A stretch of DNA of 25,983 bases from an uncultured Candidatus Saccharibacteria bacterium (GTDB lineage Bacteria; Patescibacteriota; Minisyncoccia; Minisyncoccales; RBG-13-42-11), in the NCBI GenBank assembly GCA_964501545.1, contig CAZCSH010000003.1, positions 1-25,983 of the forward strand. Direction: 5' to 3'. A model generated the notes under the pieces. The model was not told the DNA's origin. It did no database searches and was given only the letters and a program-made list of their open reading frames with translations. The translations under genes were made by a program, and so were the position numbers. Positions within the stretch are counted from its first letter, which is position 1, and the number at the start of each line of letters is the position of its first letter. Positions 13,008 through 25,956 of this stretch are shown piece by piece.

Positions 13008-14642
13008 ATGGAAGAAATATTAACTCAAAAAGGAGGCAAGAAGATATTACTCTTGGGGAACGAAGCAATAGTCAGAGGCGCCTTAGAAGAAGGCGTCCAA
13101 TTTGTTTCTACTTATCCTGGCACGCCAGCTTCTGAAATTGGCAACACTTTTTATAAGATCTCCAAAAAAGCTGGAGTTTATTTTGAATTCTCAACTAATG
13201 AAAAAGTAGCTTTAGAGGCAGGTGTTGGCGCCTCCTTTTCTGGTTTAAAAACCTTGGTGGCGATGAAGAACTTTGGTTTGAATGTCGCCTTGGATGCTCT
13301 TTTGCCTTTTGCTTACACTGGGACTAAAGGCCCGACTGTTATTGTGGTAGCAGACGACCCTTCCTGCCATAGTTCAGCTCAATCAGAAGAGAATAGTCGG
13401 GGTCTAGCTGAACTGGCTCATGTTCCTATTCTTGAGCCTTCTACTCCTCAAGAGTGCAAGGACTTTGTAAGGCTCGGTTTTAGATTGTCAGAAAGATTTA
13501 AGACCCCAGTTATTATTAGAACTACTACTAGAGTGGCTCATCAAACCGGAGTCGTTAAGTTAGAAAAAATTAAAAAACCGAAAGGAAGAGGGAATTTTAT
13601 TAAGGATACCAGAAGGTTTGTTACTTTACCTCCCAGAGTTCTTGAAATGAAAAAAGAACTTTTAGAAAAGATAGAGAAAATCCAGAGTTTTTCTGAAGCT
13701 CTTGCTAAACCGAGTTTAGCTAAACCGGGTTCAGCCGGTATTATTACCTCGGGAATTTCTTATTTGTACGTCAAAGAAGCCCTTCAAGAACTTAAATTAG
13801 ATTTGCCAGTTTTGAAATTAGACTTTTTCTATCCCTTTCCAGAAAAGAGGATTAAAGACTTTATTAAAAAACTTAAGAAGGTTTTAATTGTTGAAGAATT
13901 AGAACCTTATTTGGAAAAAGAAGTTGAAAGGTTAGCAAAAGAAGCAAATTGTAATTTAAAGATTATTGGAAAAGAACTGATACCTGAAGTTGGAGAATTA
14001 AAACCCGAAATTGTCACTGCGGTTCTCGCTAAATTCACTAATTGTAAATTGAAAATTGAAAATTCATTAAAAATTGAAAATTTAAAATTAAAAATTCCCA
14101 AAAGGCTCCCACAGCTCTGTCCCGGTTGTCCTTACTGGCTGGTTATTTCAGCCATAAAGAAGGCGGTTGACACGAACAAGGTTATCTTTGGTGGCGAAAT
14201 CGGCTGCTACATGCTTTTTGGCAACCCGCCGGTCAAATTACAGGATTATCTTTCCTGCATGGGCTCCTCGGCTGGAATCGCCCACGGTATTAAAAAAGCC
14301 ACTGGCCAGAAAATAATCACTTTTGTCGGCGATTCGTCTTTCTTTCATGCCGGAATTCCGGCTTTAATCAATACGGTTTTCAATAAGTCCAATCCTTTAA
14401 TCATCATTCTGGAGAACGAAACAACCGCCATGACCGGACACCAGCCCCATCCCGGAGCTCCGGCTGTGCCCAATGGAATAAAGATAGAAAACGTTGTTCG
14501 GGGCTGCGGCGTAAGAAACGTTAAGGTGCTTGATCCCATAAATCAGGAAGAATTTGTTAAAACGATCAAAGAATTTATGGGGAAGCCCGACGTTTCAGTA
14601 ATTATTGCCCGTCGTCCTTGTATATTTGTTTCTAAAAAATAA
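13008..14642 (+). CDS. iorA: Indolepyruvate ferredoxin oxidoreductase alpha subunit, lacking the C-terminal ferredoxin domain
   Basis: Motifs LLGNEAIVRG, YPGTPASE, STNEKVALE, ADDPSCHSSAQSE, LCPGCP, TPP motif GDSSFFHAG...LENETTAMTGHQP, and the ending ARRPC. Confidence 0.9.
   Translation: MEEILTQKGGKKILLLGNEAIVRGALEEGVQFVSTYPGTPASEIGNTFYKISKKAGVYFEFSTNEKVALEAGVGASFSGLKTLVAMKNFGLNVALDALLPFAYTGTKGPTVIVVADDPSCHSSAQSEENSRGLAELAHVPILEPSTPQECKDFVRLGFRLSERFKTPVIIRTTTRVAHQTGVVKLEKIKKPKGRGNFIKDTRRFVTLPPRVLEMKKELLEKIEKIQSFSEALAKPSLAKPGSAGIITSGISYLYVKEALQELKLDLPVLKLDFFYPFPEKRIKDFIKKLKKVLIVEELEPYLEKEVERLAKEANCNLKIIGKELIPEVGELKPEIVTAVLAKFTNCKLKIENSLKIENLKLKIPKRLPQLCPGCPYWLVISAIKKAVDTNKVIFGGEIGCYMLFGNPPVKLQDYLSCMGSSAGIAHGIKKATGQKIITFVGDSSFFHAGIPALINTVFNKSNPLIIILENETTAMTGHQPHPGAPAVPNGIKIENVVRGCGVRNVKVLDPINQEEFVKTIKEFMGKPDVSVIIARRPCIFVSKK
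13704..13735. repeat. Family C palindromic 15-nt tandem in frame in iorA (AKPSL-AKPGS)
   Basis: GCTAAACCGAGTTTA followed by GCTAAACCGGGTTCA. Hairpin GCTAAAC/GTTTAGC. Exact 13-mer shared with metG 4248-4260. Confidence 0.7.
14040..14096 (+). repeat. AT-only ~7-bp periodic repeat (AAAATTG) in frame in the iorA linker
   Basis: AATTG-TAAATTG-AAAATTG-AAAATTC...AAAATT. Encodes NCKLKIENSLKIENLKLKI. Confidence 0.7.
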
Positions 14643-14658
14643 TGGCTAAGAAATTAGA

Positions 14659-14739
14659 CCCCGTTAGAAATTACCGGATTAATGGGGTCAATGAAATCAA
14701 TTACTATGAAGAGAATAAAAAACCAAATTTCTAACGGGG
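14659..14739 (+). mobile_element. MITE-like element 1 (81 bp), 14-bp TIRs, TAGA target duplication
   Basis: Ends CCCCGTTAGAAATT ... AATTTCTAACGGGG. TAGA at 14655-14658 and 14740-14743. Excision restores M-A-K-K-L-E-Q-F-N-M from ATG 14642. Confidence 0.88.
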
Positions 14740-15308
14740 TAGAACAATTTAATATGGTTATCGTTGGAATAGGCGGTCAGGGTTTAATTACCCTATTACA
14801 AATTGTTGCCCGAGCCGCTTTATCGGAAGGATATGATATAAGAAGTTCAGAACTGCACGGTCTTTCTCAACGGGGAGGCTCGGTTGAGGTACACCTTAGA
14901 TTCGGCAAAAAAATTTATTCACCTTTGATTTCTTTAGGCGGAGCAGACTTAATCTTAGGATTGGAATTGCAAGAAGCTGCAAGATCAACAGCTTTTGCCA
15001 ACAAGAGAACAAACTTTTTGGTTAATGAACAAATAATTCCTATACCTTTGGAGAAATCCCCGTCTTCAGAAGAAATTTTAAAAACTTTAAGGAAAATAAA
15101 TAAAAATATTCATTCGGTTCCAGCTGCCAAGATTTGCCGGGAAAAGCTAGGAACAGATGTGATAGCCGGAGTTTATTTGATAAGTTTAGCTGCTTTTCAA
15201 GGGTTAATTCCTTTAAAACCTAGTTCAATTTCTCAAGCGATTAAAAAAATAATTCCAAAGAAGTATTTGGAACTAAACCTCAAAACCTTTAGGTTGGCTA
15301 AAGGTTAG
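14682..15308 (+). CDS. iorB: Indolepyruvate oxidoreductase beta subunit (POR gamma-like), start supplied by MITE 1
   Basis: Motifs VGIGGQG, SELHGLSQRGGSVEVHLRFG, ADLILGLE and ELNLKTF. In-frame ATGs at 14682, 14691 and 14706 (inside the element) and at 14754. Confidence 0.88.
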   Translation: MGSMKSITMKRIKNQISNGVEQFNMVIVGIGGQGLITLLQIVARAALSEGYDIRSSELHGLSQRGGSVEVHLRFGKKIYSPLISLGGADLILGLELQEAARSTAFANKRTNFLVNEQIIPIPLEKSPSSEEILKTLRKINKNIHSVPAAKICREKLGTDVIAGVYLISLAAFQGLIPLKPSSISQAIKKIIPKKYLELNLKTFRLAKG

Positions 15309-16585
15309 ACTTTTTGAATTTGGGCGCCAAGCTTTCTAAGTTTTTCTTCTATCTTTTCGTGACCTCTCTCTATGTGAGAGATGTTTTCAATTAAAGTTTT
15401 GCCTTTGGCGGCGAGACCCGCCAGAATAAGAGCTGTCCCTGATCTAATATCTAAGGCGTTTAGTTTCTTACCAATTAATTCTGTTTTACCAAAGATTAGA
15501 GCTCGGTGAGGGTCAGTGATTTCAATGTCAGCCCCCATTTTTCTTAACTCTTGGAGATATTGGAATCTGTTTTCGTAGAGAGGCTCATGAATTAAACTTT
15601 TACCTTGAGCTTGGGTTAAGAGAACGGAGGTTTGAGGTTGGAGATCAGTTGGGAAGCCAGGATAGGGGAGAACTTGGATTTTTGTGCTTTTGAATTCTGT
15701 TGAAGGTTTTACTAAAATTTCATTGTTAGAAATTTCAAAATTGACTCCAATCTCCTTCATTTTTTCTAGAAACATTATTAAGTGTTCACTATTTACCCCC
15801 TTGATTGTTCCCTGACCCCCGGTAGCTGCCAGAGCAATTAAGAAAGTGCCAGCCTCCAAAAGATCAGGTGAGATAGTAAATTCTGCTCCACTTAAAGTTT
15901 CTTTTCCCTCAATTGAGATTGTATGGGTGCCTATCCCTTGAATGTTGAGCCCCATTTTCTCTAAAAACTTTCCTAAATCCTGAACTTGGGGTTCAGCTGC
16001 TGCCATTTCAATCTTTGTCTTTCCCTTAGATAAAGCAGCTAACATCATTAAGATTTCGGTAGCTGTTACTGAGAACTCTTTTAAGACAATTCTTTTTCCT
16101 TCCAAGGCTTCTGGGGTTTCAAGATAATAAAAACCTTGTTTTTCTTCTACCTGAACACCAAAGTCTTTTAAAGCCTGGAGGTGGGTAGAAATAGGTCTCA
16201 GCCCTATTTCGTCACCTCCTGGATGAGGGATTTTGAGTTTTTTGAATCTAGCTAAAAGAGGGCCTATTAAGAGAATCGAAACCCTCATTTTCTCAAAGAG
16301 GTTAGTTGGAATGTTTTCTGGGTTAATATTAGCTGGATTGATTTTAACTTTTCTTTCTCCCAGCCATTCAACTTCCACCCCCAAAGATTTTAAAATCTCA
16401 ATTTGGTCCAAGACATCAGTTACTTTTGGCAGGTTATCAATAATGGAGGGTTCTTTGGCAAGCAAAACAGCTGCCAAAACGGCGCCAGCTGAGTTTTTGT
16501 AACCCGAAATTTCGACTTCTCCCTGAAGGGGAACGCCGCCCTTTATTAAAAACTTACCTTGCCCCGTTAGAAATTTTTGATTCAT
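15305..16585 (-). CDS. murA: UDP-N-acetylglucosamine 1-carboxyvinyltransferase (Cys115-to-Asp type)
   Basis: Motifs GEVEISGYKNS, PGGDEIGLRP, SVTATE, AAAEPQV, YPGFPTDLQ, YENRF and DIRSG. The start lies inside MITE 2. Confidence 0.95.
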   Translation of the reverse strand: MNQKFLTGQGKFLIKGGVPLQGEVEISGYKNSAGAVLAAVLLAKEPSIIDNLPKVTDVLDQIEILKSLGVEVEWLGERKVKINPANINPENIPTNLFEKMRVSILLIGPLLARFKKLKIPHPGGDEIGLRPISTHLQALKDFGVQVEEKQGFYYLETPEALEGKRIVLKEFSVTATEILMMLAALSKGKTKIEMAAAEPQVQDLGKFLEKMGLNIQGIGTHTISIEGKETLSGAEFTISPDLLEAGTFLIALAATGGQGTIKGVNSEHLIMFLEKMKEIGVNFEISNNEILVKPSTEFKSTKIQVLPYPGFPTDLQPQTSVLLTQAQGKSLIHEPLYENRFQYLQELRKMGADIEITDPHRALIFGKTELIGKKLNALDIRSGTALILAGLAAKGKTLIENISHIERGHEKIEEKLRKLGAQIQKV

Positions 16586-16628
16586 AGATTTTACTGAAAT
16601 ACCCCGCTATTTAAAATTTCTAACGGGG
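16562..16628 (-). mobile_element. MITE-like element 2 (67 bp), 16-bp TIRs, CTTG target duplication
   Basis: Ends CCCCGTTAGAAATTTT ... AAAATTTCTAACGGGG. CTTG at 16558-16561 and 16629-16632. Excision restores M-Q-G-K-F-L-I-K-G-G from minus-strand ATG 16635. Confidence 0.9.
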
Positions 16629-16629
16629 C

Positions 16630-16658
16630 TTGCATCCTTCACTTTTTTACTCTACAAT
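16630..16658 (+). promoter_or_regulatory. Sigma70-type promoter for the yvcK-glmU-like operon
   Basis: TTGCAT (16630-16635), 17-nt spacer, TACAAT (16653-16658), 12 nt before ATG 16671. Confidence 0.65.
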
Positions 16659-16670
16659 AAAACAGTCTTT

Positions 16671-17651
16671 ATGTCAAAAAGAGTTAGAAAAGTTGTTTGT
16701 TTTGGGGGCGGGAATCTAGTTCCCAAGGTTTTATTGGAACCTTTAAAGAAATACCCTGTTCAAATTACCAGTATCACTTCAATGACAGAGAGCGGAGGCT
16801 CGACAGGTTATTTGAGAAAAGAGCTCAATGTTTTGCCGGCAGGGGACATTAGCCGGCACTTAGTCGGTCTCTCTTCTGCCTCTAAATGGAAAAAGGATCT
16901 TTTTTATTCAAGATTTGGTAAAGAAAAGTTTCCTGGAGGTCATGCCGGCCATCGCTTTGGGACTGTTTTTATATCTTTGGCAGAATATGTTTTAGGAGAC
17001 TTTGAAAAAGCCTTGAAAGTAACCCATGACTTTTTGGAAGTAAAAAAACACAAGGCTTTACCTGCTACCCTTCAAAAGGTCCAACTGATGGCGGAACTGG
17101 AGAACGGGAAGACTATTGAGGGGGAGGACGAAATAGACGTTCCCAAAAGGCACAACCCGAAATTAAAGATTAAAAAAGTCTTTCTCAAACCTAAAGCCAA
17201 AGTTTATCCAAAGGTTAAAAAAGCAATAGTTGAGGCAGATTTAATCACTTTAGGCCCAGGCGATCTTTATTCCAGTACTATTCCTTGCCTCTTGCCAGAA
17301 GGAATGAAGGAGGCTTTTAGAAAAACAAAAGCCAAGAAAGTTTTAATCTGCAATGCCCTAGCTAAACTTGGAGAAACCAATAACTTTTCAGTTCTAGATT
17401 TCGTTAGAGAAGTGGAAAAATATATGGGTTTTTCCCTTGACTTCGTTCTCTATAATATTAAAACTATTGATAAAAGGTTAATGGAGGAATACAAAAGAGA
17501 TAACCCCTCAATTGTGATTGTGGGCCAGGTAAAGGTCAATAAGAACCTCAGAAAGCCAAAGTTTGTTGGCAAGGACTTATTAAGGAAAAAAGGCAAGGAT
17601 TTTGGCGGAGCTGACCTTATAAAAGAAATCTTTAACCTATGCAAGCTCTAA
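16671..17651 (+). CDS. yvcK: YvcK/GlmR (CofD-like, UPF0052) family protein
   Basis: Motifs VCFGGG, SMTESGGSTGYLR, PAGDI, GEDEID, LGPGDLYSSTIPCLL and LGETNNFS. Confidence 0.88.
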   Translation: MSKRVRKVVCFGGGNLVPKVLLEPLKKYPVQITSITSMTESGGSTGYLRKELNVLPAGDISRHLVGLSSASKWKKDLFYSRFGKEKFPGGHAGHRFGTVFISLAEYVLGDFEKALKVTHDFLEVKKHKALPATLQKVQLMAELENGKTIEGEDEIDVPKRHNPKLKIKKVFLKPKAKVYPKVKKAIVEADLITLGPGDLYSSTIPCLLPEGMKEAFRKTKAKKVLICNALAKLGETNNFSVLDFVREVEKYMGFSLDFVLYNIKTIDKRLMEEYKRDNPSIVIVGQVKVNKNLRKPKFVGKDLLRKKGKDFGGADLIKEIFNLCKL

Positions 17652-18883
17652 TTTTAGCCGCGGGAGAAAGCTCAAGATTTTGGCCCTTAAACCAAAGACA
17701 CAAATCCCAAATTAAGGTATTGGGAAAATCTTTGGTTAGCTGGACTATTCAAAGCTTAGAAGAGGCAGGGATCAAAGATGTTGTTCTGGTAGTTGGACCA
17801 AATTCTTCTTTGAAGGAAGAGTTTCCTTCGATTAGCCACCTTACCCAGGAAAAAGCCTTGGGAACAGGGAATGCTCTCTCTTTGGCCAAAGACCTGATCA
17901 AAGAACCCTTTCTCGTTGTTTGGCCTTACAAGATTAATGCTAAAGAAATTATCGATAAGGTTTTAGAGAAATATAAAGGAGAAAAACCCAAAGCAGTTTT
18001 GGTGGGTAGAAAAACTTCTCATCCCCATGATTACGGAATCCTCAAGACAGAAGGCGAGAGAGTGGTTGAAATTGTTGAAAATCCTCAAGCCGGAGCAGAG
18101 CCTTCGGACATTAAGGTTGTTGGAGCTTACTTTTTAGAGCCTGATTTTTTTGATTATTATCAAAAGATTGAAGAACACCATCCAGAAGATTTTATTGATG
18201 CTCTTAATAATTATATTAAAGAAAAAGCAACTAAACTGGTTGTTTTAGAAAAAGAACCTTCTTCTTTAAAGTATCCCTGGGAAGTCTTGGGGATATTACC
18301 TATGATGTTTGATTCAGACAATTTTAAACCCTCTATCTCCCAAACAGCTAAGATTGGGGAAAATGTGGTGATGGAGGGGGATGTTTATATTGGCGAGAAG
18401 GTTGTCATTGGGGCCAATACCGTGATTTTAGGCCCTTGTTATATTGGAGATAATTGTAAGATTGGGGCTAATAATGTTTTGAGGGGGCCGGTTAATTTGG
18501 AAAAAGATGTTGTCACCGGTGCTTTAATGGAGATTAAGAATTCTCTGGTCCAAGAGGGCACTCACTTTCATTCTGGCTACCTTGGTGACTCGGTTATTGG
18601 AAAGAATTGTCGTTTTGGGGCAGGCTTTATTGTGGCCAACAGAAGAATTGACAGGGGAAACATTAAATCAGTTGTCAAAGGAGAAAAAGTAGATACCGGG
18701 CTTACTTATTTGGGAGTAATTGTCGGAGATAATACTCGTTTTGGCATTCATTCGGGCACCATGCCAGGAGTTTTGATTGGCTCTGATTGTTTGATTGGTC
18801 CTGGCAGCTTAGTTTTTGAAAATCTTGAAGACAACACTGCTTTTTATACTAAGTTTGAAGGCGTGAGAAAAGAAAATAAATAA
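17639..18883 (+). CDS. Sugar-1-phosphate nucleotidyltransferase with hexapeptide (LbH) domain, archaeal-type GlmU-like
   Basis: N-terminal LILAAGESSRFWPL, QEKALGTG and YPWE, then hexapeptide repeats, HSGYLGDSVIG and GVIVGD. Confidence 0.82.
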   Translation: MQALILAAGESSRFWPLNQRHKSQIKVLGKSLVSWTIQSLEEAGIKDVVLVVGPNSSLKEEFPSISHLTQEKALGTGNALSLAKDLIKEPFLVVWPYKINAKEIIDKVLEKYKGEKPKAVLVGRKTSHPHDYGILKTEGERVVEIVENPQAGAEPSDIKVVGAYFLEPDFFDYYQKIEEHHPEDFIDALNNYIKEKATKLVVLEKEPSSLKYPWEVLGILPMMFDSDNFKPSISQTAKIGENVVMEGDVYIGEKVVIGANTVILGPCYIGDNCKIGANNVLRGPVNLEKDVVTGALMEIKNSLVQEGTHFHSGYLGDSVIGKNCRFGAGFIVANRRIDRGNIKSVVKGEKVDTGLTYLGVIVGDNTRFGIHSGTMPGVLIGSDCLIGPGSLVFENLEDNTAFYTKFEGVRKENK

Positions 18884-18912
18884 TCTTGTGGAAAAGTACT
18901 AATAAAGAGGGA

Positions 18913-18940
18913 TTGACAAGAATCCCTCTTTTGCTAATCT
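18913..18940 (+). promoter_or_regulatory. Sigma70-type promoter embedded in a terminator-like hairpin
   Basis: TTGACA (18913-18918), 16-nt spacer, TG-C-TAATCT (18932-18940). The -35 overlaps the loop of the inverted repeat AAGAGGGATT (18905-18914) / AATCCCTCTT (18921-18930). Confidence 0.55.
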
Positions 18941-18945
18941 GTGAT

Positions 18946-19316
18946 AAAGAGGTTAGGGCAGCCAGCCTTATTCCTCTCTTGCTGAAGGGGGCAACCTTGG
19001 TCTTTGGGGAAGGGTTCCCCTTTCGTATGTTGAGGTGCAGGGTTGCCCCTTTCTAGATCTTTCATTTCCTCGAAGGAGGAAGCAATTGCTTCATCAACTC
19101 AAACTGCCTTTAGTAGGGCCACGAGCTCGTTGATGAGTTCGTGGCCTAAAGCAAGCACGGCCCGGCAGAGCCCATCTGCCAGATCCAATTGGGGCCATAA
19201 GGTCCCAAAGAGGGTAAATCCCTCAAAAAGAAGAAAAGGGGTGAGCGCCCCGCCTCGTGCGGGGCGCCCCCACAAACTTCTCTCGGCTCCGTCCATAGCG
19301 TCGGAGCTCTTTTTTT
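18946..19316 (+). ncRNA. Putative structured non-coding RNA of unrecognised class
   Basis: GC-rich intergenic block with at least 7 stems, bracketed by a promoter and an intrinsic terminator. No convincing ORF. Confidence 0.45.
19286..19316 (+). terminator. Intrinsic terminator
   Basis: Stem GCTCCG (19286-19291) / CGGAGC (19302-19307), followed by TCTTTTTTT. Confidence 0.65.
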
Positions 19317-19331
19317 ATTCTTTTTGCTAAA

Positions 19332-19348: not shown

Positions 19349-19933
19349 ATGGAAATATTGAAAGCAAAAAGAGTTTCCGGGAAAGTTGTGAGGCAGATTG
19401 TCAAAGAAATCAAAGAGGGCAAGGTCTTAATCTTCCCCACTGACACAGTTTATGGCTTGATTGCTGCAGCTACCAACAAGAAAGCAGTTGATAGGATTTT
19501 TCAGATAAAAAAAAGAAATAAGAGAAAACCAATACCTATATTTGTTAGAGATTTAAAGCAGGCAAAGGAATTGGCTGAGATAAACAAAGTCCAGGAAGTG
19601 CTTTTAAAGATAGCTTGGCCTGGCAAGATGACATTTGTTTTCTGGCGGAAGAGAAGGGAAAAGCTCTACGGGGTAGATAAAAAGAGTATTGCTCTGCGAA
19701 TCCCAGATTATCCTTTAGTCAGCAAGGTTTTAAAGAAAATAAGTCTTCCTTTGACCGGCACCTCAGCCAATATTTCAACTAAAGCTCCGACAACAAAGAT
19801 TAAAGAAGTCCTGAAAGAGTTTAAAGGTCAAAAATATCAGCCTGATTCAGTTGTTGATGCTGGCAATTTAAAACCAGCCGGACCCTCCACTGTTATTGAT
19901 CTAAGACAGGGTTTTAAGATTTTAAGAAAGTAA
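19349..19933 (+). CDS. tsaC: L-threonylcarbamoyladenylate synthase (YrdC/Sua5 N-domain)
   Basis: Motifs FPTDTVYG, IKKRNKRKPI, WPGKMT, ALRIPD, TSANIS and PSTVID. The track start 19331 falls inside the -10 box, so 19349 is preferred. Confidence 0.92.
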   Translation: MEILKAKRVSGKVVRQIVKEIKEGKVLIFPTDTVYGLIAAATNKKAVDRIFQIKKRNKRKPIPIFVRDLKQAKELAEINKVQEVLLKIAWPGKMTFVFWRKRREKLYGVDKKSIALRIPDYPLVSKVLKKISLPLTGTSANISTKAPTTKIKEVLKEFKGQKYQPDSVVDAGNLKPAGPSTVIDLRQGFKILRK

Positions 19934-19934
19934 T

Positions 19935-21128
19935 ATGCCACTTATCAGCTTTCCCCCAACTAACTTTTTAAGATACTTTTTAAAGAGAGAGGCCAATCAA
20001 TTCTTTACCAGTGTTGCCATTCGTTCTCTGGCTCTGGGCATGGTGGTCATTTTTGAGCCAATCTACCTCTATAACTTCTTTGGCCATTCTCTTTCTCTCA
20101 CTCTTTTATTTTTTGGAGCAATTCAGGGTCTTTATGGTTTGTTAGCTGTCTGGGGAGCGAAATTCATGGCTAGAGTTGGTTTGAAGCACTCCATTCTCTT
20201 TAGCCATGTTTTCTTCTGGGCCTACTATATGTCTTTGTTTCTTATTGGGAAATTCTTTTTGTTCGTACCTTTAGCCATTGTTTTGAAAGCTGTTGGTATG
20301 ACTTTGTTTTGGCCTGCCTTTCACACAGATTTCATTCGCTTTTCAGAGAATGACTACCAAGGGAGAGCGGTAGGCAAAATGAACGTTGTTTTTTCCATCC
20401 CTACTATTCTTAGTCCGGCCATTGGGGGCGCTATCTTGGGATTGGCGGGTTACCAGGCTTTGTTTATTAGCGTCTTGATTGTTCTCTTTGCCTCTTCTAT
20501 CCCAATGTTTCTTTCTCGGGAAACCCATGTTGTTTACAGTGATTCTTACAAGAAAGCTTGGTCTCGGCTTTTTAAGAAAGAAAATTGGAGGGCAACCTTA
20601 GCTTTTGCCTCTTCCTCAATGGAAGCTGGAGTGAGAGAGATTTTGTGGCCAATCTTTATGTTTGTTCTGGCTATTAGTTTTACAGTCATGGGAGGGATTA
20701 CCACTTTAGCTTTGGGAGTAGGGTCCCTGTTTGTTTTGTACATGGGCAGGATTTCAGACAGTATTTCCAATCGGGTTTGGTTTCTGAACATCGGCTCTGT
20801 TTTAACTTCCATGGCCTGGATTATAAAATACTTTGTTCTTACTCCGTTTGATGCTTTTTTAGCCAAGACCCTTTATGGGATTTGCCGCTCAACAGCTGAC
20901 ATCCCTTTTCAGACTTTCTTTTACAAAAAAGCCTCCCTTAAAAGAGGAGAGGCAGATGAGTTCATAGTCTACCGGGCAATTGTTCTTAATCTTTCTTACT
21001 TCTTTTTTTTCTCGCTTCTAGCTCTGCTTTTTCTCTTTACCGCCAAAATCAATATTGCCTTTCTGATTGCCGCTGTTGTTTCTTTGGGAATTATTTTTTT
21101 AGGAGTGCCACCAAAGTTAAAATGGTAG
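19935..21128 (+). CDS. MFS family transporter
   Basis: 397 aa with about 12 hydrophobic segments. Motif-A-like GRISDSIS, RAVGKMN and SPAIGG. Confidence 0.8.
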   Translation: MPLISFPPTNFLRYFLKREANQFFTSVAIRSLALGMVVIFEPIYLYNFFGHSLSLTLLFFGAIQGLYGLLAVWGAKFMARVGLKHSILFSHVFFWAYYMSLFLIGKFFLFVPLAIVLKAVGMTLFWPAFHTDFIRFSENDYQGRAVGKMNVVFSIPTILSPAIGGAILGLAGYQALFISVLIVLFASSIPMFLSRETHVVYSDSYKKAWSRLFKKENWRATLAFASSSMEAGVREILWPIFMFVLAISFTVMGGITTLALGVGSLFVLYMGRISDSISNRVWFLNIGSVLTSMAWIIKYFVLTPFDAFLAKTLYGICRSTADIPFQTFFYKKASLKRGEADEFIVYRAIVLNLSYFFFFSLLALLFLFTAKINIAFLIAAVVSLGIIFLGVPPKLKW

Positions 21129-21129
21129 C

Positions 21130-21375
21130 CTATTCTTTTTCTTCCGATGCTTTCTTTAACTGGAGAGAAATAATTACTACCAAAGCAGTGACAATGACAG
21201 CGTAAGAGAATTTACCAATCACCCCTTCTGACTCAGGGAAGAGAAGTCTAAAGAGCGTCTGAATGGCATCGTTCCAAGCCAAAGCAGCTACCAAGCCAAA
21301 GCCTGCCAGCATAAGAGTTAACATCTTTTCCTTTAGCTCTTTTTTTGTTTTGTTTATTTCGTTTAAAGGGTTCAT
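21130..21375 (-). CDS. Small two-TM membrane protein, DUF5654-like (81 aa)
   Basis: AGFGLVAALAWNDAIQ motif and two hydrophobic helices. The track's longer start runs through the tRNA and is rejected. Confidence 0.75.
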   Translation of the reverse strand: MNPLNEINKTKKELKEKMLTLMLAGFGLVAALAWNDAIQTLFRLLFPESEGVIGKFSYAVIVTALVVIISLQLKKASEEKE

Positions 21376-21377
21376 AG

Positions 21378-21461
21378 TGGGCGAGGTGGGACTCGAACCC
21401 ACATGGAGCAAGCTCCACAGGTTTTTGAGACCTGTCTGTAAACCAATTCCAGCACTCGCCC
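21378..21461 (-). tRNA. tRNA-Leu(CAA), 84 nt, CCA not encoded
   Basis: Acceptor stem GGGCGAG/CTCGCCC plus A73, anticodon stem CAGGT/ACCTG with loop CT-CAA-AA, long variable arm TGGAGC-TT-GCTCCA, and T-arm GTGGG-TTCGAGT-CCCAC. Confidence 0.96.
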
Positions 21462-21472
21462 AACACCCCTTC

Positions 21473-21481
21473 ATTCTATCA
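21473..21481 (-). promoter_or_regulatory. Extended -10 for tRNA-Leu
   Basis: Minus strand TG-A-TAGAAT, ending 11 nt upstream of the tRNA 5' end. Confidence 0.5.
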
Positions 21482-21504
21482 ATTTTTTATTATTTCTTCA
21501 ATGA

Positions 21505-21558
21505 CCGAGCCCGCCTAAGGCGGGCGAAGGTGAAGAAGAGGACAAAATCCTCTTCGCC
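21505..21558 (+). repeat. Hairpin repeat family A, intergenic, abutting the topA stop
   Basis: CCGAGC, internal hairpin CCCGCC-TAA-GGCGGG, then GCGAAGGTGAAGAAGAGGA-CAAAA-TCCTCTTCGCC. Confidence 0.8.
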
Positions 21559-21560
21559 TT

Positions 21561-23582
21561 TTATCGAGCCGCATTCGGATAGTCGCACTCTTTATTAGAA
21601 CATTTAATTTGTCCTCTTTTAGTCTGAACTAACAAAAAGCCACAGTCTGGGCATTTCTCTTTGGTGGGTTTGTCCCATAAGGCAAAATCACACTTTGGGA
21701 ATCTATTGCAGCCGTAAAATATTTTTCCTTTTTTGGTCCTTTTCTCAACAATTTCACCCTTTTTGCATTTTGGGCATTTAATTCCCAGAACATTCTTTTC
21801 TAGAGGTTCTGTGTAGCGGCATTTTGGAAAAGCAGAACAGGCGTAAAACTGGCCAAACTTGCCCATTCTTACAACTAGAGGAGCTTTACATTTGGGGCAG
21901 GTTTTCTTTGTTGGTTTTTCGGTAATCTCTTTTTTGGAAACCTCTTCATACTTTCTTTTCAGGTTTTTCTCAAAAGGAGCATAGAACTCTCTTATTACCG
22001 GCACCCATTCCTTTTCTCTTTCTGCTATTTCATCTAACTCTTCCTCCATTTTGGCGGTAAACTTAATATCAACAATCTTGGGAAAGTGATTAACCAAAAG
22101 ATCGTTAACCAGCGTTCCTATTTCAGTAGGTTTAAATCTTCTTTGCTCGTCTTTCTCAATATAGTTTCTTTCTTGGATGGTAGAGAGAATGAGAGCGTAA
22201 GTAGAAGGTCTTCCTATTCCGTTCTCTTCCAAAGCCTTGATTAAGGTGGCCTCTGTATATCTTGGAGCAGGCTGGGTAAAGTGTTGAGCCGGCAGGAGTT
22301 TTATTAATTCCAAGACATCGTTCTTTTTCAAAAAGGGAAGTTCTTCTTCCTTGTACTTTATTGGGTAAACCTTTAAAAACCCGTCAAACTTTAGGGTTTG
22401 GCCAGTGGCTCGAAAAGTGTAGTTTTTAGCTACAATATCGACTGCGGTTGAGTTAAAAACAGCTTGGGCCATTTGACAAGCGATAAACCTTTGCCAAATG
22501 AGTTGATAAAGCTTTTTTTGTTGGGTTTCCAGCTTGACCTTTTCTGGAGTTCTGTCCGGATAAGTAGGCCTGATGGCTTCGTGGGCTTCTTGAGCTCTGC
22601 CTTTAGTTCTATATCTACGGAACTGATAATAGTTTTGGCCAAAGTTTTCAGTAATAAACTTTTTGGCTGTTCCCAGAGCTAAGTTTGAAAGGTTCAAAGA
22701 GTCAGTTCTATGATAGGTCGTTAGCCCTTTCTCATAAAGCTGTTGGGCTATCTGCATTGTTTTTCTAGCAGGGAAACGGAATTTTCTCCAGGCTTCTTGC
22801 TGAAGGTAGCTTGTGGTAAAAGGAGGCAGGGGATTTCTTTTAACTTCTTTTTTCTCCACTCCTTCCACTCTGTAGTCTGTCCCTTTTAAGTCTTTTGTAA
22901 TCTTCTCTGTCTCCCCTTTGTTTTTAATAGCGAGCTTCTCTAGAGCTTTGTTGTCTTTTTTAACTAAAAGAGCTTTGAACTCCTTATCTTTTTTCAAGAG
23001 AGCCTCTATTGTCCAGTATTCTTGAGGGGTGAAAGCCTCAATTTCTCTCTCACGTTCGACAACCAAGCGAACAGCCACAGACTGGACCCTGCCGGCTGAC
23101 AATCCCCTGGCTATTTTCTTCCATAAAAAGGGAGAAAGTTTGTAGCCGACAATTCTATCTAAGATTCTTCTTGCCTGCTGGGCGTCTACTAAAGCCATAT
23201 CAATCTTTCTTGGGTTCTTTAAAGCTTCTTCTATGGCTTGTTTTGTAATTTCGTGAAATGCAATTCTTTGGTATTCTTTTTTGCCATTGAGATTTAAAGC
23301 TTGAGTTAAATGCCAGGCAATGGATTCTCCCTCTCTATCCTCGTCCACAGCTAAAATAATTATATCTGCTTCTTCCGCAGCTTTCTTTAATAAGGTGATT
23401 GTTTTTCTTGATTTTGGAGGGATAACGTACTTTGGCTCAAAATCATTCTCAATATCAACTCCAAGTTCGCTTTTTGGCAAATCTCTCACGTGGCCGTAGG
23501 AAGCAAGGACCCTGTAACCGGAGCCCAAAAAGTTTTTAATAGTATTCCCTTTGGCAGGGCTTTCCACTATGACTAAGCGCAT
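21561..23582 (-). CDS. topA: Type IA DNA topoisomerase I
   Basis: TOPRIM motifs IVESPAK, GHVRDLP and DEDREGE, plus SAGRVQS, catalytic TYHRTDS, EAHEAIRPT, GIGRPST and C-terminal Zn ribbons. Confidence 0.97.
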   Translation of the reverse strand: MRLVIVESPAKGNTIKNFLGSGYRVLASYGHVRDLPKSELGVDIENDFEPKYVIPPKSRKTITLLKKAAEEADIIILAVDEDREGESIAWHLTQALNLNGKKEYQRIAFHEITKQAIEEALKNPRKIDMALVDAQQARRILDRIVGYKLSPFLWKKIARGLSAGRVQSVAVRLVVEREREIEAFTPQEYWTIEALLKKDKEFKALLVKKDNKALEKLAIKNKGETEKITKDLKGTDYRVEGVEKKEVKRNPLPPFTTSYLQQEAWRKFRFPARKTMQIAQQLYEKGLTTYHRTDSLNLSNLALGTAKKFITENFGQNYYQFRRYRTKGRAQEAHEAIRPTYPDRTPEKVKLETQQKKLYQLIWQRFIACQMAQAVFNSTAVDIVAKNYTFRATGQTLKFDGFLKVYPIKYKEEELPFLKKNDVLELIKLLPAQHFTQPAPRYTEATLIKALEENGIGRPSTYALILSTIQERNYIEKDEQRRFKPTEIGTLVNDLLVNHFPKIVDIKFTAKMEEELDEIAEREKEWVPVIREFYAPFEKNLKRKYEEVSKKEITEKPTKKTCPKCKAPLVVRMGKFGQFYACSAFPKCRYTEPLEKNVLGIKCPKCKKGEIVEKRTKKGKIFYGCNRFPKCDFALWDKPTKEKCPDCGFLLVQTKRGQIKCSNKECDYPNAAR

Positions 23583-23604
23583 ATTGTTTTAACTTTATCA
23601 TTTA

Positions 23605-23646
23605 CTGAGTGTCAGCGAAAGTGAAGAAGAGAGTCTTCTCTTCGAC
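23605..23646 (+). repeat. Hairpin repeat family A, intergenic between topA and mfd
   Basis: CTGAGTGTCAGCGAAAGTGAAGAAGAGA-GTCT-TCTCTTCGAC. Confidence 0.75.
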
Positions 23647-23669
23647 TGGTTTTTATTTTTTCTACAGCT

Positions 23670-23720
23670 TCAGACAACACCCCGAAGCAAAACCCTCGGT
23701 TTGCTACGGGGCAGGTCTGA
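23670..23720. repeat. Imperfect long palindrome covering the mfd stop codon
   Basis: Nested stems TCAGAC/GTCTGA, CCCCG/CGGGG and AGCAAA/TTTGCT. The minus strand encodes V-R-P-A-P-stop. Confidence 0.65.
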
Positions 23721-25659
23721 CAGTTTTTAACCTATCAACAGACTCGGATAACATTTGACAGAACAAGTTTAATCCTATTCTGTTGATGTTGCCTGACTGC
23801 TCTTTCCCCAGAATGTTGCCAGCCCCTCTGATTTCCAAATCCCTTAAGGCAATTTTATAGCCAGATCCCAGAGCTTCAGCCTCTTTCAAAGCATCAAGTC
23901 TCATCTTAGCTTTTTCTGAGAGGCGGTTGCCAGAGAGAAAGAAAGCCGTAGCCTGAATGTGCGACCTACCAATTCTTCCTTTGATTTGGTAAGCCTGGGA
24001 GAGGCCAAGTTTAGTAGCATCTGCCACGATCAAAGTGTTGACATTGGGCAGGTCCAAACCGTTTTCAATAATAGTGGTAGCTACTAAAATGTCAATCTTT
24101 CTCTCTTGAAAGTCTTTCATAACCTGGACCAAGTTCTTTTCTCTCAGCCTGCCATGAGCTATACCAATTCTGGCTTTGGGCACCAGTTTTTCTAGAAGCT
24201 TTTTTGCCATCTCTATTGTTTCTACTCTGTTGTGCAAATAGTAGACCTGCCCTTTTCTTTTTAATTCGGCTGTTATTGCCTTCTTGATTGTTTTCTCTGA
24301 CCAAGGAAGGATATTGGTTTTAATAGCTAACCTGCCAAAAGGGGGAGTTTGGATTGTGCTGATATTTTTTAAAGAAGATAAAGCTAAATAGAGAGTTCTG
24401 GGAATTGGGGTGGCAGAAAGGGAAAGAACGTCTAAGGAGGCTCTCAATTTCTTTAACTTTTCTTTTTGTTTAACTCCAAATCTCTGCTCATCGTCAATCA
24501 CCAGTAATCCCAAGTTTTTAAACTCAACGTCATTAGACAGTATTCGGTGGGTACCGATAACAATGTCTGTTTTGGCCTCTTTTAATTCTTGCAGAATTTC
24601 TTTTTGCTCTTTTTTTGTCTGAAGTCGGGACAAGAGAGATATTTTAATTGGCAAATCTTTTATCCTTTCTTTTAAGTTCTCAAAGTGTTGGTTAGCTAAA
24701 ATAGTAGTAGGGCAAATCATAGCTACCTGGTATCCTGACCTGACTGCTTTAACCATTGTTCTTAGAGCCACCTCTGTTTTGCCAAAACCAACATCTCCGC
24801 AAACAATCCTGTCCATGGGCTCTGTTCCTTCCAAGTCCTCTTTTATTTCTTCTGTCGTCTGTATTTGATCTGGAGTTTCCTCGTACGGGAAAGTGCTTCT
24901 TATTTTTTCATCTATTTCTTCATCTGCTAGATAAGGAGACCGGGAAGCTACTTCTCTTTTGGCGTAGAGCTCCAAAAGCTCTCTAGCTAGCTTTTCTGCT
25001 GCTTCCTTTACTTTTCTTTTTGTTCTCTGCCAGAGGCTGGAACCCAAGCGGGAGATTTTGGGATCTGTAAAACCAACATATCTTGAGAGTTTTCTTTCCA
25101 GGCCCACTGGCACAAAGAGTTTGTCGCCCTCCGCGTAATCCAGCTGGTAATAGTCTCCTCCTTGAACCTCTGTTTTTTGCTGGTAGACACCAATCCCATG
25201 GTCAAGATGAACAAGGTAGTCGCCCTCCTTTAGCTCCTTCAAATCTGAAAAGAGCTTCTGAGACTTGAGCTTTTTTTTGAGCAGCTCTTTGGCTGTTTTT
25301 TCATCTTTTATTTCAACTGGCAGCCTTTCTATAGTTTCTATTTTATTGCCCAAAAACTCAAAACGGAGAGCAGAGTTTCTATTAATTGGAAAAACATCTA
25401 CTGTTCCTCCTCTTTGGCTGAACTCGCCTGCTTCTGTCACTTGATAAACCTTTTCATAACCTAACTCATCCAACCTCCTTAAAAAGAAAGAAACTTGGAA
25501 GCTTTGGTCTTTTTCCAGATAAAGGGTATTGTCTTCAAAAAAGGACTGGGTCTTTCTGGCGGTCAGGATTTTGTTTATATTCTGTTCCATCCAAAGATTG
25601 TCTCTCTCTAAGAAATAAGGTGTAATACCGACTATTAATATTTTTTGAAGAGTATTCAT
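23704..25659 (-). CDS. mfd: Truncated transcription-repair coupling factor (UvrB-interaction + RID/CarD + SF2 translocase + TRG; no C-terminal TRCF domain)
   Basis: Motifs EFSQRGGTVDVF, EGDYLVHLDHGIG, FPYEETPDQ, CGDVGFGKTEVA, DDEQRFG, SATPIPRTL, YQIKGRIGR and DLEIRGAGNILGKEQSG. Confidence 0.9.
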   Translation of the reverse strand: MNTLQKILIVGITPYFLERDNLWMEQNINKILTARKTQSFFEDNTLYLEKDQSFQVSFFLRRLDELGYEKVYQVTEAGEFSQRGGTVDVFPINRNSALRFEFLGNKIETIERLPVEIKDEKTAKELLKKKLKSQKLFSDLKELKEGDYLVHLDHGIGVYQQKTEVQGGDYYQLDYAEGDKLFVPVGLERKLSRYVGFTDPKISRLGSSLWQRTKRKVKEAAEKLARELLELYAKREVASRSPYLADEEIDEKIRSTFPYEETPDQIQTTEEIKEDLEGTEPMDRIVCGDVGFGKTEVALRTMVKAVRSGYQVAMICPTTILANQHFENLKERIKDLPIKISLLSRLQTKKEQKEILQELKEAKTDIVIGTHRILSNDVEFKNLGLLVIDDEQRFGVKQKEKLKKLRASLDVLSLSATPIPRTLYLALSSLKNISTIQTPPFGRLAIKTNILPWSEKTIKKAITAELKRKGQVYYLHNRVETIEMAKKLLEKLVPKARIGIAHGRLREKNLVQVMKDFQERKIDILVATTIIENGLDLPNVNTLIVADATKLGLSQAYQIKGRIGRSHIQATAFFLSGNRLSEKAKMRLDALKEAEALGSGYKIALRDLEIRGAGNILGKEQSGNINRIGLNLFCQMLSESVDRLKTVRPAP

Positions 25660-25747
25660 AATGTATTTTTCTCAAACCCGGGAGTAGAAATTTGACAAGT
25701 GTTTTGCAAAACAAAACACTATCGTACCGAAGGCAGTCGAATTTTCA

Positions 25748-25849
25748 CTACCGGGCAAACCAAAAGTTCCCCTTTTCCAAAAAGTAGGGGGTGATACTGC
25801 AGATTAAGGCTCTCTCTATCCTTGACCCCGTTAGAAATTTTTGATCCAT
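25748..25849 (-). pseudogene. 33-codon ORF homologous to the Mfd N-terminus (stub or upstream peptide)
   Basis: Hand translation gives MDQKFLTGSRIERALICSITPYFLEKGNFWFAR*, which aligns with KILIVGITPYFLERDNLWM of the downstream Mfd. Below the ORF-track size cutoff. Confidence 0.7.
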
Positions 25850-25928
25850 AGGCATTACCCAATAATTAATTTTAAAGCCAATAACTTATCCTTCTAAATA
25901 CCTACGAATGTAAAATTTCTAAACGGGG
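25826..25928 (-). mobile_element. MITE-like element 3 (103 bp), 16-bp TIRs (one extra base on the right), TTGA target duplication
   Basis: Ends CCCCGTTAGAAATTTT ... AAAATTTCTAAACGGGG. TTGA at 25822-25825 and 25929-25932. Excision restores M-E-L-S-R-I-E-R from minus-strand ATG 25941. Confidence 0.87.
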
Positions 25929-25956
25929 TTGACAATTCCATCTAAAATAGTATAAT
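25929..25956 (+). promoter_or_regulatory. Consensus sigma70 promoter pointing out of the window
   Basis: TTGACA (25929-25934), 16-nt spacer, TATAAT (25951-25956). Confidence 0.7.

Follow-up and report, generated by a model that had tools for sequence, protein, structure and literature searches.

Palindromic mini-elements over-represented at start codons, and full-length relatives that encode a predicted GIY-YIG nuclease

Short palindromic repeats are widespread in prokaryotic genomes. Prokaryotic MITEs, such as the Correia elements of Neisseria, are short, non-coding, multi-copy sequences with terminal inverted repeats and a target-site duplication (TSD), and they often sit next to gene starts and alter expression. 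Rickettsia palindromic elements (RPEs) insert inside protein-coding genes in frame and add a peptide (PMC10969869); no mobilising enzyme is mentioned for them in that review and none is known to us, they do not target start codons, and no duplication or start donation has been reported. In REPIN-RAYT systems one small nuclease gene is flanked by the same palindromes that make up a large population of ORF-less repeats, although RAYTs are HUH tyrosine transposases and REPINs are extragenic and leave no duplication. The DDE elements piggyBac and IS1380 use enzymes of several hundred residues, with a 4-bp duplication of a palindromic TTAA target and CCC-type termini. GIY-YIG catalytic domains are carried by selfish insertions squeezed between or into host genes, including free-standing homing endonuclease genes (I-TevI, Seg proteins) and the ORFs in non-intron insertions of CPR rRNA genes (PMC11270868).

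We examined a 25,983-nucleotide stretch of DNA from an uncultured Candidatus Saccharibacteria bacterium (contig CAZCSH010000003.1 of assembly GCA_964501545.1; hereafter the window), in which an earlier note had described three short insertions just after start codons, each donating a replacement ATG. Our analysis confirms this observation. The accompanying interpretation, in which the insertions are derivatives of a DDE transposase element that target 5′ gene ends or survive there only through this rescue, is partly supported. The three insertions belong to a very large, cross-phylum family of mini-elements that is strongly over-represented at start codons and whose full-length form encodes only a predicted GIY-YIG nuclease of ∼85 residues. 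Literature searches on the end sequence, on MITEs at start codons, on GIY-YIG genes associated with inverted repeats, TSDs, MITEs or transposons, and on UPF0213/YhbQ/COG2827 proteins found no description of this family, within the limits of open-access papers and bioRxiv.

Three insertions in the first codons of genes

The three elements (81, 67 and 103 bp) have CCCCGTTAGAAATT inverted ends and exact 4-bp duplications, and lie 2-5 codons into iorB, murA and a duplicated 5′ fragment of mfd. The exact 12-mer CCCCGTTAGAAA occurs five times in the window and a sixth arm carries an indel; all six belong to these three pairs. Finding three exact 4-bp flanking repeats in three cases has a chance probability of about (1/256)^3. 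The relevant features are as follows.

14659-14739 (+): E1, an 81-bp non-autonomous element in iorB codons 5-6, with inverted ends at 14659-14672 and 14726-14739 and in-frame ATGs at 14682, 14691 and 14706.
14655-14658 (+): left copy of the E1 duplication TAGA, with the right copy at 14740-14743.
14642-14734 (+): the native iorB ATG, overlapping the iorA stop as TAATG; it now opens a 30-codon uORF that reads through the left end and stops at the TAA inside the right end, and the next host-frame ATG is at 14754.
14682-15308 (+): iorB (POR gamma-type subunit) as now readable, starting from the element ATGs.
16562-16628 (−): E2, a 67-bp element directly after the murA ATG (ATG|CAAG), with the donor ATG at 16585-16583.
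16629-16632 (−): upstream copy, in the gene sense, of the E2 duplication CAAG (CTTG on the forward strand), with the other copy at 16558-16561.
16591-16635 (−): the native murA ATG (16635), which now opens a 14-codon uORF (MQAPLEILNSGVFQ followed by a stop) whose TAA lies 5 nt before the donor ATG.
15305-16585 (−): murA, 426 aa from the donor ATG, where the native form was 419 aa.
25826-25928 (−): E3, a 103-bp element forming a near-perfect long hairpin, one arm of which has an extra T (CCCCGTTTAGAAATT), with the duplication TCAA in the gene sense (TTGA at 25822-25825 and 25929-25932) and in-frame ATGs at 25855 and 25849.
25748-25941 (−): the duplicated mfd N-terminal fragment interrupted by E3; its native ATG (25941) lies 7 nt downstream of a promoter-like site, TTGACT-17-TATACT.
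23704-25659 (−): the intact, uninterrupted mfd gene, whose N-terminus (ITPYFLERDNLW) the fragment duplicates.

The elements, the native ATGs and the element ATGs are where the earlier note placed them and in the frames that it gave, and E1 has two in-frame ATGs (14682 and 14691) beyond the one noted. Each insertion breaks the native reading frame and carries an ATG in the host frame. The elements contain only short ORFs, have perfect arms of 14-16 nt, and form stems predicted to fold at −21 to −36 kcal/mol (z = −3 to −6). With their duplications they add 85, 71 and 107 nt, none a multiple of three and hence unlike the in-frame insertions of RPEs. The only Rfam match in the window at gathering score is a tRNA at 21378-21461.

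Relatives support two of the three reconstructed native starts. Among the 120 best MurA homologues, 113 are 419 aa long, nearly all 120 begin MxxKFLIKGG and several begin MQGKFLIKGG exactly, while a 97%-identical MurA (locus L003; database loci recovered in our searches are designated by L and a number) has no element. Likewise, IorB of L001 and L002 begins MKKDFNIIIAG and MYSNKKIVEFNTLIVG, matching the reconstructed MAKKLEQFNMVIVG. The third host is only a 28-codon, dead-looking fragment upstream of the real mfd start at 25659, with a native start reconstructed from the window alone, such that the earlier claim of rescue in three of three copies is overstated. For iorB, moreover, a native internal Met codon (ATG 14754) could also serve as the start. 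The same population, elements included, recurs in 13 contigs (8 displayed) from several samples.

A cross-phylum family over-represented at start codons

A search for the pair of inverted repeats in species-representative genomes returned at least 120 loci, from Patescibacteria, Planctomycetota, Desulfobacterota, Nitrospirota, Omnitrophota, Gammaproteobacteria, Elusimicrobiota and KSB1, and a search with one end returned at least 120 loci in metagenomes. No plasmid match was found, and only 3 hits were present in 2.9 million viral contigs, so phages are not an obvious vector. Members have ends CCCCGTTAGAA...TTCTAACGGGG, which are free of stop codons in two of three frames, and a 4-bp duplication of a target R|TNNA|Y (about 14% CNNG). 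The first duplicated position is T in 86% and C in 14%, the fourth is A in 86% and G in 14%, and the preceding base is G or A. About 35% of the inverted-repeat pairs lack an exact duplication.

Of 147 duplication-bearing copies from many phyla, 26 sit exactly on a start codon (N|TGNN), where the last base of the element plus the duplicated TG rebuilds a start codon. About 77% of these 26 also carry an ATG in the host frame, on the gene-proximal side only. In the genome-contig sample, in which gene starts were inferred with ORF heuristics rather than a gene finder, 14 of 84 duplication-bearing copies sit on the first start codon of an ORF of at least 100 codons. Of these, 11 carry a host-frame ATG on the gene-proximal side, against 20 of 140 for other copies and orientations (Fisher p = 1e-6) and 0 of 14 in the opposite orientation; overall, the frame- and orientation-matched ATG is found in 11/14 and 9/12 cases versus about 14%. 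Among copies with an identical right end (CAAAAATTTCTAACGGGG), the ATG is in frame 0 when the host gene leaves in frame 0 (murA, an NTP-transferase gene in L166 and uvrB in L245), is in frame 2 when the host leaves in frame 2, and is usually absent when no gene leaves. The element ATG in the host frame is therefore supported for the family and not only for the window copies. However, the CTATG that the earlier note found in each element is not a family constant, as most copies of the subfamily containing E2 and E3 have TTG or no start codon at that position.

Copies located elsewhere tend to have in-frame lengths. Of 70 non-start copies, 42 have a length of 2 mod 3 (p = 6e-6), so that element plus duplication is divisible by three, and 15 of 84 copies read through inside long ORFs as xPVRN..ISNGV, adding a peptide as RPEs do. 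Copies at 5′ ends keep the host gene readable in one of three ways: by the rebuilt junction start codon, by an ATG near the right end in the host frame, or by an in-frame length.

Start codons are occupied by 11/78 copies versus 16/3091 matched 4-mer sites (odds ratio [OR] 32, p = 9e-12), and the OR against 5′-UTR positions is 12.5. For R|TGAA sites with coding interiors excluded, the ratio is 13:11 versus 274:1497 (OR 6.5, p = 1.6e-5). It remains possible, though in our view doubtful, that there is no preference for start codons at insertion, and that elements land at any R|TNNA|Y site with only harmless ones surviving, ORF-less copies at starts being in situ remnants of full-length units and in-frame ATGs having arisen or been selected after insertion. 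Indeed, any insertion seen in an essential gene must be a rescued one, most E2/E3-type copies outside genes lack the ATG, ATGAA is both a good target and a common start context, and elements at the same murA site have different interiors. Survivorship, or in situ decay of full-length copies, could account for part of the bias. However, the excess persists against both R|TGAA-matched and nearby 5′-UTR sites, and retention alone does not enrich positions unless loss rates differ. Moreover, murA carries an element at the same bond (ATG|CAAG) in three lineages nested among non-carriers, the nearest relatives (97.8%, 90% and 91% identity) lacking it. L166 and L245 have ORF lengths suggestive of further murA carriers, but translation identifies the NTP-transferase gene and uvrB, which strengthens the start-proximal pattern while removing both from the murA count.

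Full-length units and the putative mobilising nuclease

The DDE transposase proposed in the earlier note was not found. We looked for a transposase next to 15 solo ends and between distant end pairs and found only host genes, and no DDE gene lay between such ends in about 250 loci of up to 8-15 kb, with partner searches confined to 8-kb flanks. Instead, the only coding units bounded by the same ends are ∼270-280 bp long and encode one GIY-YIG protein of ∼85 aa with a predicted UPF0213/Slx1-like fold. Its last codons (..KKFLTG or ..RFLSLTG) are the right inverted repeat, and its stop codon is supplied by the duplicated target (TGAA or TAAA). The proteins of L164 and L192 match Pfam PF01541 with E = 1e-15 and 1e-16. 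At least 4378 related clusters exist (6026 clusters at 50% identity); of the 120 best, 76 end exactly in LTG and 22 carry an N-terminal extension encoded by the inverted repeat. Residues Y5, G18, H30, E50, D57 and E62 are invariant, so these full-length relatives, unlike the window copies, have a GIY-YIG domain with conserved catalytic residues. A structural model (pLDDT 93.5) is closest to UPF0213 BH0048 and to the Slx1 nuclease domain (TM-scores normalised to the query of 0.53 and 0.60-0.66, respectively). UPF0213 (YhbQ/BH0048) proteins and the Slx1 nuclease domain are the closest matches in sequence as well as in fold; they are single-copy host genes or eukaryotic repair enzymes, and none is described as part of a mobile unit. 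Slx1 is structure-specific, cutting junctions, flaps and stem-loops, which fits recognition of palindromic ends.

In L252 and L255 the unit splits a host start codon (A|TGAA). The nuclease ORF is then read from the host ATG through the left end (MNPVRE...), and its TGA overlaps the host start codon rebuilt from the last base of the element plus the duplicated TG, in a 4-nt stop/start overlap (ATGA or GTGA). For L252, orthologous empty sites prove the insertion: L273 and L276 are colinear with L252 once the unit and one TGAA copy are removed.

We therefore favor, with moderate confidence, an explanation in which E1-E3 are deletion-type (MITE-like) members of this family. The splitting of host start codons by full-length units, the over-representation of copies at or just after start codons and the three ways in which 5′-end copies keep their hosts readable are established by the analysis. 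In contrast, it is inferred that the GIY-YIG protein recognises the palindromic ends and mobilises both the full-length units and the ORF-less copies, as it is that the element lives as an extra upstream cistron that borrows the transcription and translation signals of the host and hands on the ribosome by termination-reinitiation. In this view the start-codon bias comes from target preference plus purifying selection, with a component that remains beyond what a matched 5-mer and survivorship explain.

Several findings weigh against this inference. No activity of the 85-aa protein is known, it has no DNA-binding domain, and no GIY-YIG enzyme is known to perform transposition that leaves target duplications. 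Only 2 of 6 full-length units examined have a perfect duplication, and L164 and L192, the ones with exactly the ends of the window elements, have none. No GIY-YIG gene lies in the window, so a partner in this genome is not shown. Global alignment of E1-E3 to L164 and L192 revealed no convincing homology beyond the ∼16-17-nt ends, and on this basis we rejected the idea that the donor ATG is the conserved Met of ..GMGKRY.. in the nuclease.

One alternative is that these are ordinary MITEs of a DDE insertion sequence (for example with an IS1380/piggyBac-like or IS5-like parent), the small GIY-YIG ORF being only a frequent passenger. The 4-bp duplication, the termini beginning CC(CC) and the TNNA target recall piggyBac (TTAA, CCCTAGAAAG) and IS1380, which are discussed together in the literature. 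However, targets rank TAAA > TGAA > TCAA, and TTAA accounts for only 4 of 147 duplications (p = 2e-13 against 25%). In addition, the closest GIY-YIG homologues commonly end in the codons of the right repeat, whereas other GIY-YIG mini-ORFs carry other CCCCG... inverted ends, a pattern of co-evolution and not of cargo. We consider this alternative unlikely.

Spread by homing, through cleavage of an empty allele and repair from a filled one after DNA uptake with the 4-bp repeats as by-products, also seems unlikely. GIY-YIG enzymes are classical homing endonucleases, the same murA bond is occupied in three lineages with conserved flanks, and the mfd fragment looks like a co-converted foreign 5′ end because its differences from the real mfd are mostly synonymous. 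However, copies sit at hundreds of unrelated sites that share only R|TNNA|Y, and one genome has the unit at one gene and an empty site at another (L255 and L273 come from the same contig). Homing endonuclease genes have one cognate target, no inverted ends and no duplication, whereas L252 and L255 have inverted ends plus a TGAA duplication. The protein (84-86 aa) is the catalytic domain alone, a single domain covering residues 1-70, and lacks a separate recognition domain. The family also differs from free-standing homing endonuclease genes in having abundant ORF-less derivatives.

Compared with Correia-type MITEs, the family has ends that are conserved across phyla, a strong bias to the start codon itself, and start codons rather than promoters to provide. 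REPIN-RAYT systems differ in that here the putative partner is GIY-YIG, duplications are present and many copies are intragenic. On present evidence it is about equally plausible as not that these elements represent a new class of prokaryotic transposable element, which at ∼275 bp would be the smallest autonomous one so far: a bare, Slx1-like nuclease framed by palindromic ends that also encode its C-terminus, inserting into a host start codon as a translationally coupled upstream cistron with no promoter, ribosome-binding site or stop codon of its own. Its ORF-less derivatives would act as portable start-codon cassettes that rewrite N-termini, including that of MurA, across at least eight phyla. 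If the GIY-YIG protein is the mobilising enzyme, a nuclease class would be added to the short list of enzymes that move DNA transposons. This would also define a minimal selfish element that survives in very compact genomes, where intergenic space is almost absent, by using the one place where it can be expressed and yet be harmless, the start codon.

Reading of the interrupted genes

The start codon used in each host gene is inferred from sequence alone. In our preferred view, MurA can only be made from the donor ATG 16585, where initiation is probably helped by the 14-codon uORF that starts at the native ATG, melts the 16-bp stem and stops 5 nt before the donor ATG, although the strong stem should itself hinder initiation there. 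IorB would start either at an element ATG or at the native Met-10 codon (14754), after a 30-codon uORF that is coupled to iorA, while E3 sits in a non-functional mfd fragment and rescues nothing. The genes of the window lack Shine-Dalgarno motifs. The uORF stop overlaps the donor ATG (ATGA) in L001, in L166 and in two of the 26 start-codon copies (L151 and L209). However, uORF stops at start-codon copies scatter from −17 to +97 nt around the donor ATG, and in the absence of a null model we make no statistical claim.

A further alternative, which we regard as very unlikely, is that ribosomes skip the insertions by programmed translational bypass, as in T4 gene 60 or the mitochondrial ‘byp’ elements, such that the native N-termini are still made and the donor ATG is irrelevant. 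In E2 and E3 the duplication starts on a codon boundary, so a take-off codon (CAA or TCA) is matched by an identical landing codon after the element, and the element folds into a strong hairpin. However, E1 has no matching landing codon, no stop codon follows the take-off codon, and the gaps of 71-107 nt exceed the 50-nt gap of the gene 60 bypass. The frame-matched ATG seen across the family would also be unexplained.

These insertions have practical consequences. Essential genes would acquire uORF-dependent initiation, so their expression may depend on translational coupling, and the elements offer natural, portable initiation cassettes together with a small, putatively structure-recognising nuclease. 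Gene callers give such genes wrong or extended N-termini (426 versus 419 aa for MurA) and produce MNPVRE... nuclease fusions and many spurious small ORFs, and contigs break at these repeats.

Three elements in the window and their native starts

The motif CCCCGTTAGAAA occurs five times exactly in the window and once more with a one-base insertion, and all six occurrences form three inverted pairs that define the elements E1, E2 and E3:
14659-14739: E1, flanked by an exact direct repeat of TAGA.
16562-16628: E2, flanked by an exact direct repeat of CTTG.
25826-25928: E3, flanked by an exact direct repeat of TTGA.

As RNA or single-stranded DNA, these elements are predicted to fold into long stems of -20.8, -22.4 and -36.4 kcal/mol, respectively, with z-scores of -3 to -6. 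The native start codons of the interrupted genes, and the ATGs carried by the elements in the reading frame of the host, are positioned as an earlier note had described, and the observation made in that note is real and far from chance. The same sequence, elements included, was assembled in 13 contigs from several samples. Two public contigs of this population that reach the mfd end (L124 and L125) stop about 235-300 nt upstream of mfd, at or near E3, suggesting that the repeat or strain heterogeneity breaks the assembly there.

Empty sites in relatives match the reconstructed native starts for two of the three genes. For murA, 113 of the 120 closest MurA proteins are 419 aa, and nearly all 120 begin MxxKFLIKGG, with several beginning with the reconstructed MQGKFLIKGG. 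The best named hits are from Nealsonbacteria or ‘Patescibacteria group’, indicating that the window comes from a Patescibacteria-like organism. In contrast, the protein in the window is 426 aa and begins MNQKFLTGQGKFLIKGG, while the locus of a 97%-identical MurA (L003) has no element. Because no other in-frame start exists downstream, MurA must start at the ATG of the element (16585), unless something exotic happens. A 429-aa MurA homologue (P0110) has the N-terminus MKKRLISLTF-MADKFLIKGG, which looks like a ..TTTCTCTAACG.. end read in frame just upstream of the murA ATG, and this may be a further lineage with an element at the murA start.

For iorB, the proteins encoded at two related loci, L001 (MKKDFNIIIAG) and L002 (MYSNKKIVEFNTLIVG), align with the reconstructed MAKKLEQFNMVIVG. 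The native ATG overlaps the iorA stop codon as TAATG, although the native Met-10 codon (14754) remains available as an alternative start.

The third host is uninformative. E3 resides in a 28-codon duplicate of the N-terminus of mfd (ITPYFLEKGNFW versus ITPYFLERDNLW) that lies upstream of the intact gene and within a divergent promoter-like region, and it looks non-functional. The earlier note had counted three rescued genes out of three, whereas we find two good cases and one uninformative case. Features of this region and of other parts of the window are as follows:
25660-25941 (-) versus 25560-25659 (-): the first ~25 codons of mfd, present twice. The upstream copy differs from the real one mostly at synonymous positions, and therefore looks like a once-functional, possibly foreign, 5′ end rather than a recent tandem duplication.
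25929-25977: divergent promoter-like sites. On the - strand, TTGACT-17-TATACT ends 7 nt before ATG 25941, which would give a leaderless-type start. On the + strand there is a 12/12 match, TTGACA-16-TATAAT, whose -35 box is built from the right copy of the TTGA duplication plus CA.
8709-9620 (+): an ORF with a LAGLIDADG_3 domain, wedged between leuS (6200-8731) and glmS (9608-11434) and overlapping both ends. It looks like a second, unrelated selfish endonuclease gene in the same 26 kb.
21378-21461 (-): a tRNA (57 bits) inside the ORF 21130-21474, whose product carries a PF18898 DUF5654 hit in public gene calls. One of the two annotations may be spurious or shorter.

Distribution, targets and reading frames of the family

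A scan of one genome per species for the end pair, with an interior of 35-65 nt, returned at least 120 loci, which come from Patescibacteria, Planctomycetota (Pirellulales, Phycisphaerae), Desulfobacterota, Nitrospirota, Omnitrophota, Gammaproteobacteria, Elusimicrobiota and KSB1. A metagenome scan for one end likewise returned at least 120 loci. Interiors are unrelated between copies and only the ends are conserved. About two thirds of pairs have an exact 4-bp duplication. The target is R/TNNA/Y (slashes here and below mark element or target boundaries), with CNNG in 14%, and the order of preference is TAAA > TGAA > TCAA, while palindromic TTAA is rare.

The earlier note had proposed tabulating copies by position, orientation and frame relative to gene starts. 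In the genome sample, whose interiors were not pre-selected, 11 of 78 copies lie exactly between base 1 and base 2 of the first start codon of an ORF of at least 100 codons, compared to 16 of 3091 matched 4-mer positions in the same loci (OR 32). Relative to nearby 5′-UTR positions the excess is 12.5-fold. For R/TGAA sites, after excluding coding interiors to mimic survivorship, the ratio of start to tolerated positions is 13:11 against 274:1497 (OR 6.5, p = 1.6e-5). At these sites, the last G of the element (A in some subfamilies) plus the duplicated TG rebuilds a GTG or ATG start codon in the native frame.

Of the copies located at start codons, 11 of 14 in the genome sample and 9 of 12 in the metagenome sample also carry an ATG 16-61 nt from the end that is open in the host frame, whereas the rate for other copies and orientations is about 14% (p = 1e-6 and 3e-5). 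In the opposite orientation the count is 0 of 14. Some copies carry a textbook ribosome-binding site, for example AAGGAGG-N6-ATG at locus L053. With an identical right end, the frame of the ATG follows the frame of the host. The interpretation offered in the earlier note was partly supported, in that the proposal of a replacement ATG is supported at the level of the family.

A second preferred register is directly after the start codon, as seen for ATG/CAAG in murA, ATG/CAGG in an NTP-transferase gene (locus L166) and ATG/TTTA in uvrB (locus L245), and all three carry an in-frame ATG at -24. The murA gene is occupied at the same bond in three lineages whose nearest relatives (97.8%, 90% and 91% identity) are empty, and one of these lineages has a quite different 132-bp interior.

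Copies that are not at start codons favor lengths of 2 mod 3, such that element plus duplication is in frame (42 of 70, p = 6e-6). Moreover, 15 of 84 copies are read-through insertions inside long ORFs, which is possible because both ends are free of stop codons in two of three frames. Such copies add peptides of the form xPVR(N/S)...(I/T)SNG(V/A)x, as at loci L008, L020, L021, L037, L046, L048, L049, L078, L096, L103, L114 and L120. At L064 (3240-3755, - strand), and also in L067 and protein P0143, the element is inserted in frame in a prepilin leader, exactly at the G/FT cleavage motif (KGFT-PLEV...LLTG-FTMVELM). The right end plus the TTTA duplication regenerates GFT, and thus the mature pilin would be unchanged.

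Several more complex arrangements were also observed. A subfamily of 59-62 bp (interior ..GGTTACCAGAGGGAAC.CCTGGTTAATAATG..), found at loci L167, L172, L174, L202, L211, L213, L224, L228 and L242, always lies inside a second palindrome, gctgctcg/.../caagcagcgggg, and appears to be nested in, or fused with, another CCCCG-type element. Tandem and nested copies occur as well: L141 (12-118) has two identical 51-bp units that share a CTTG repeat, and L052 (893-1054) has an element within an element at a start codon.

Units with the same ends that encode a predicted GIY-YIG nuclease

The earlier note had inferred a DDE transposase as the mobilizing partner. This inference was not supported, as no transposase was found near solo ends. 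Instead, two metagenome loci (L164 and L192) hold units of 280 and 271 bp with exactly the ends of the window elements (CCCCGTTAGAAATTTT... AAAAAATTTCTAACGGGG). Each contains a single ORF of 84-85 aa with a GIY-YIG domain (E = 1e-15 and 1e-16). The last codons of this ORF, KKFLTG, are the right inverted repeat, and its stop codon (TGA or TAA) comes from the flank.

The protein family has at least 4378 clusters at 90% identity among word-sharing candidates, and 6026 clusters at 50% identity. Of the 120 best hits, 76 end exactly in ...LTG, and 22 carry an N-terminal extension that is the left end read in frame from an upstream ATG (MNPVRE..., or ..GFTPLE..). Catalytic-type residues are invariant. 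An AlphaFold model (pLDDT 93.5) is closest to UPF0213 BH0048 and to the Slx1 nuclease domain, and is less close to I-TevI.

The DNA encoding two such proteins shows the arrangement directly. In loci L252 and L255 the sequence reads ...ATGAA/TCCCGTTAGAG...nuclease...CTCTAACGGGA/TGAA..., wherein the nuclease ORF starts at the host ATG, its own Met codon having become Ile, and ends in a TGA that overlaps the regenerated host ATG. Orthologues of the L252 host gene in two other genomes (L273 and L276) are uninterrupted, and are colinear with L252 once the unit and one copy of TGAA are removed. Since L273 comes from the same contig that carries the unit at another gene (L255), positions differ between and within related genomes.

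Other small GIY-YIG ORFs in the loci examined are framed by different inverted ends that also begin CCCCG, which argues that enzyme and ends evolve together. These more distant ORFs, at L065 (4488-4736), L188 (137-349) and L233 (2111-2353), have the ends CCCCGCACCTATTAAGCAC and CCCCGCCCTCTA, and one of them sits at a tRNA 3′ end with a 19-nt direct repeat of that end.

Relation to known elements and a proposed mode of action

Functionally, the ORF-less copies are MITEs, and they fulfill every structural criterion for such elements except a conventional parent. The in-frame intragenic copies resemble Rickettsia palindromic elements. The predicted nuclease belongs with UPF0213/YhbQ proteins and with homing endonucleases, although the unit has inverted ends, duplications and many target sites, and the protein lacks a recognition domain. 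A 2024 survey of CPR rRNA insertions noted GIY-YIG ORFs in non-intron insertions that did not look like homing, and this may be the same family seen from another angle. In the open literature, to which our searches were confined to the exclusion of subscription journals, we found no description of this end sequence, of GIY-YIG units with inverted repeats and duplications, or of MITEs that rebuild or donate start codons. The element itself is MITE-like, and the inference of a DDE parent is replaced by a GIY-YIG mini-element. There is a substantial chance, about as likely as not, that the family is a categorically new type of transposon.

Our analysis directly establishes the anatomy of the elements, their insertion sites, duplications and empty sites, the coding overlap between the nuclease and the right end, the overlap of stop and start codons, and the ATGs matched in frame and orientation. 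How the elements move and how their hosts are translated are inferred from sequence alone. We propose that the GIY-YIG protein recognizes the palindromic ends, perhaps as a hairpin or cruciform as suggested by its predicted Slx1-like fold, and that it would mobilize both full-length and ORF-less copies. In this view, a full-length unit would be expressed only by borrowing a host promoter and start codon, and would return the ribosome to the host gene by termination-reinitiation. Target preference (A/TGAA is a good target) and purifying selection contribute to the start-codon bias, but a roughly 6-fold excess remains unresolved by these factors.

In the ORF-less copies, the short uORF that begins at the native ATG would unwind the stem and end near the donor ATG, permitting reinitiation. 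This uORF ends 5 nt before the donor ATG in murA of the window, and overlaps it as ATGA in L001 and L166. Such coupling matters here because a 16-bp stem would otherwise bury the donor ATG, and because the genes in the window have essentially no Shine-Dalgarno sequences. Examination of the 30 nt upstream of 18 ORF starts across the window revealed almost no such motifs and leaders that are A/T-rich, suggesting that initiation in this organism is largely independent of Shine-Dalgarno pairing.
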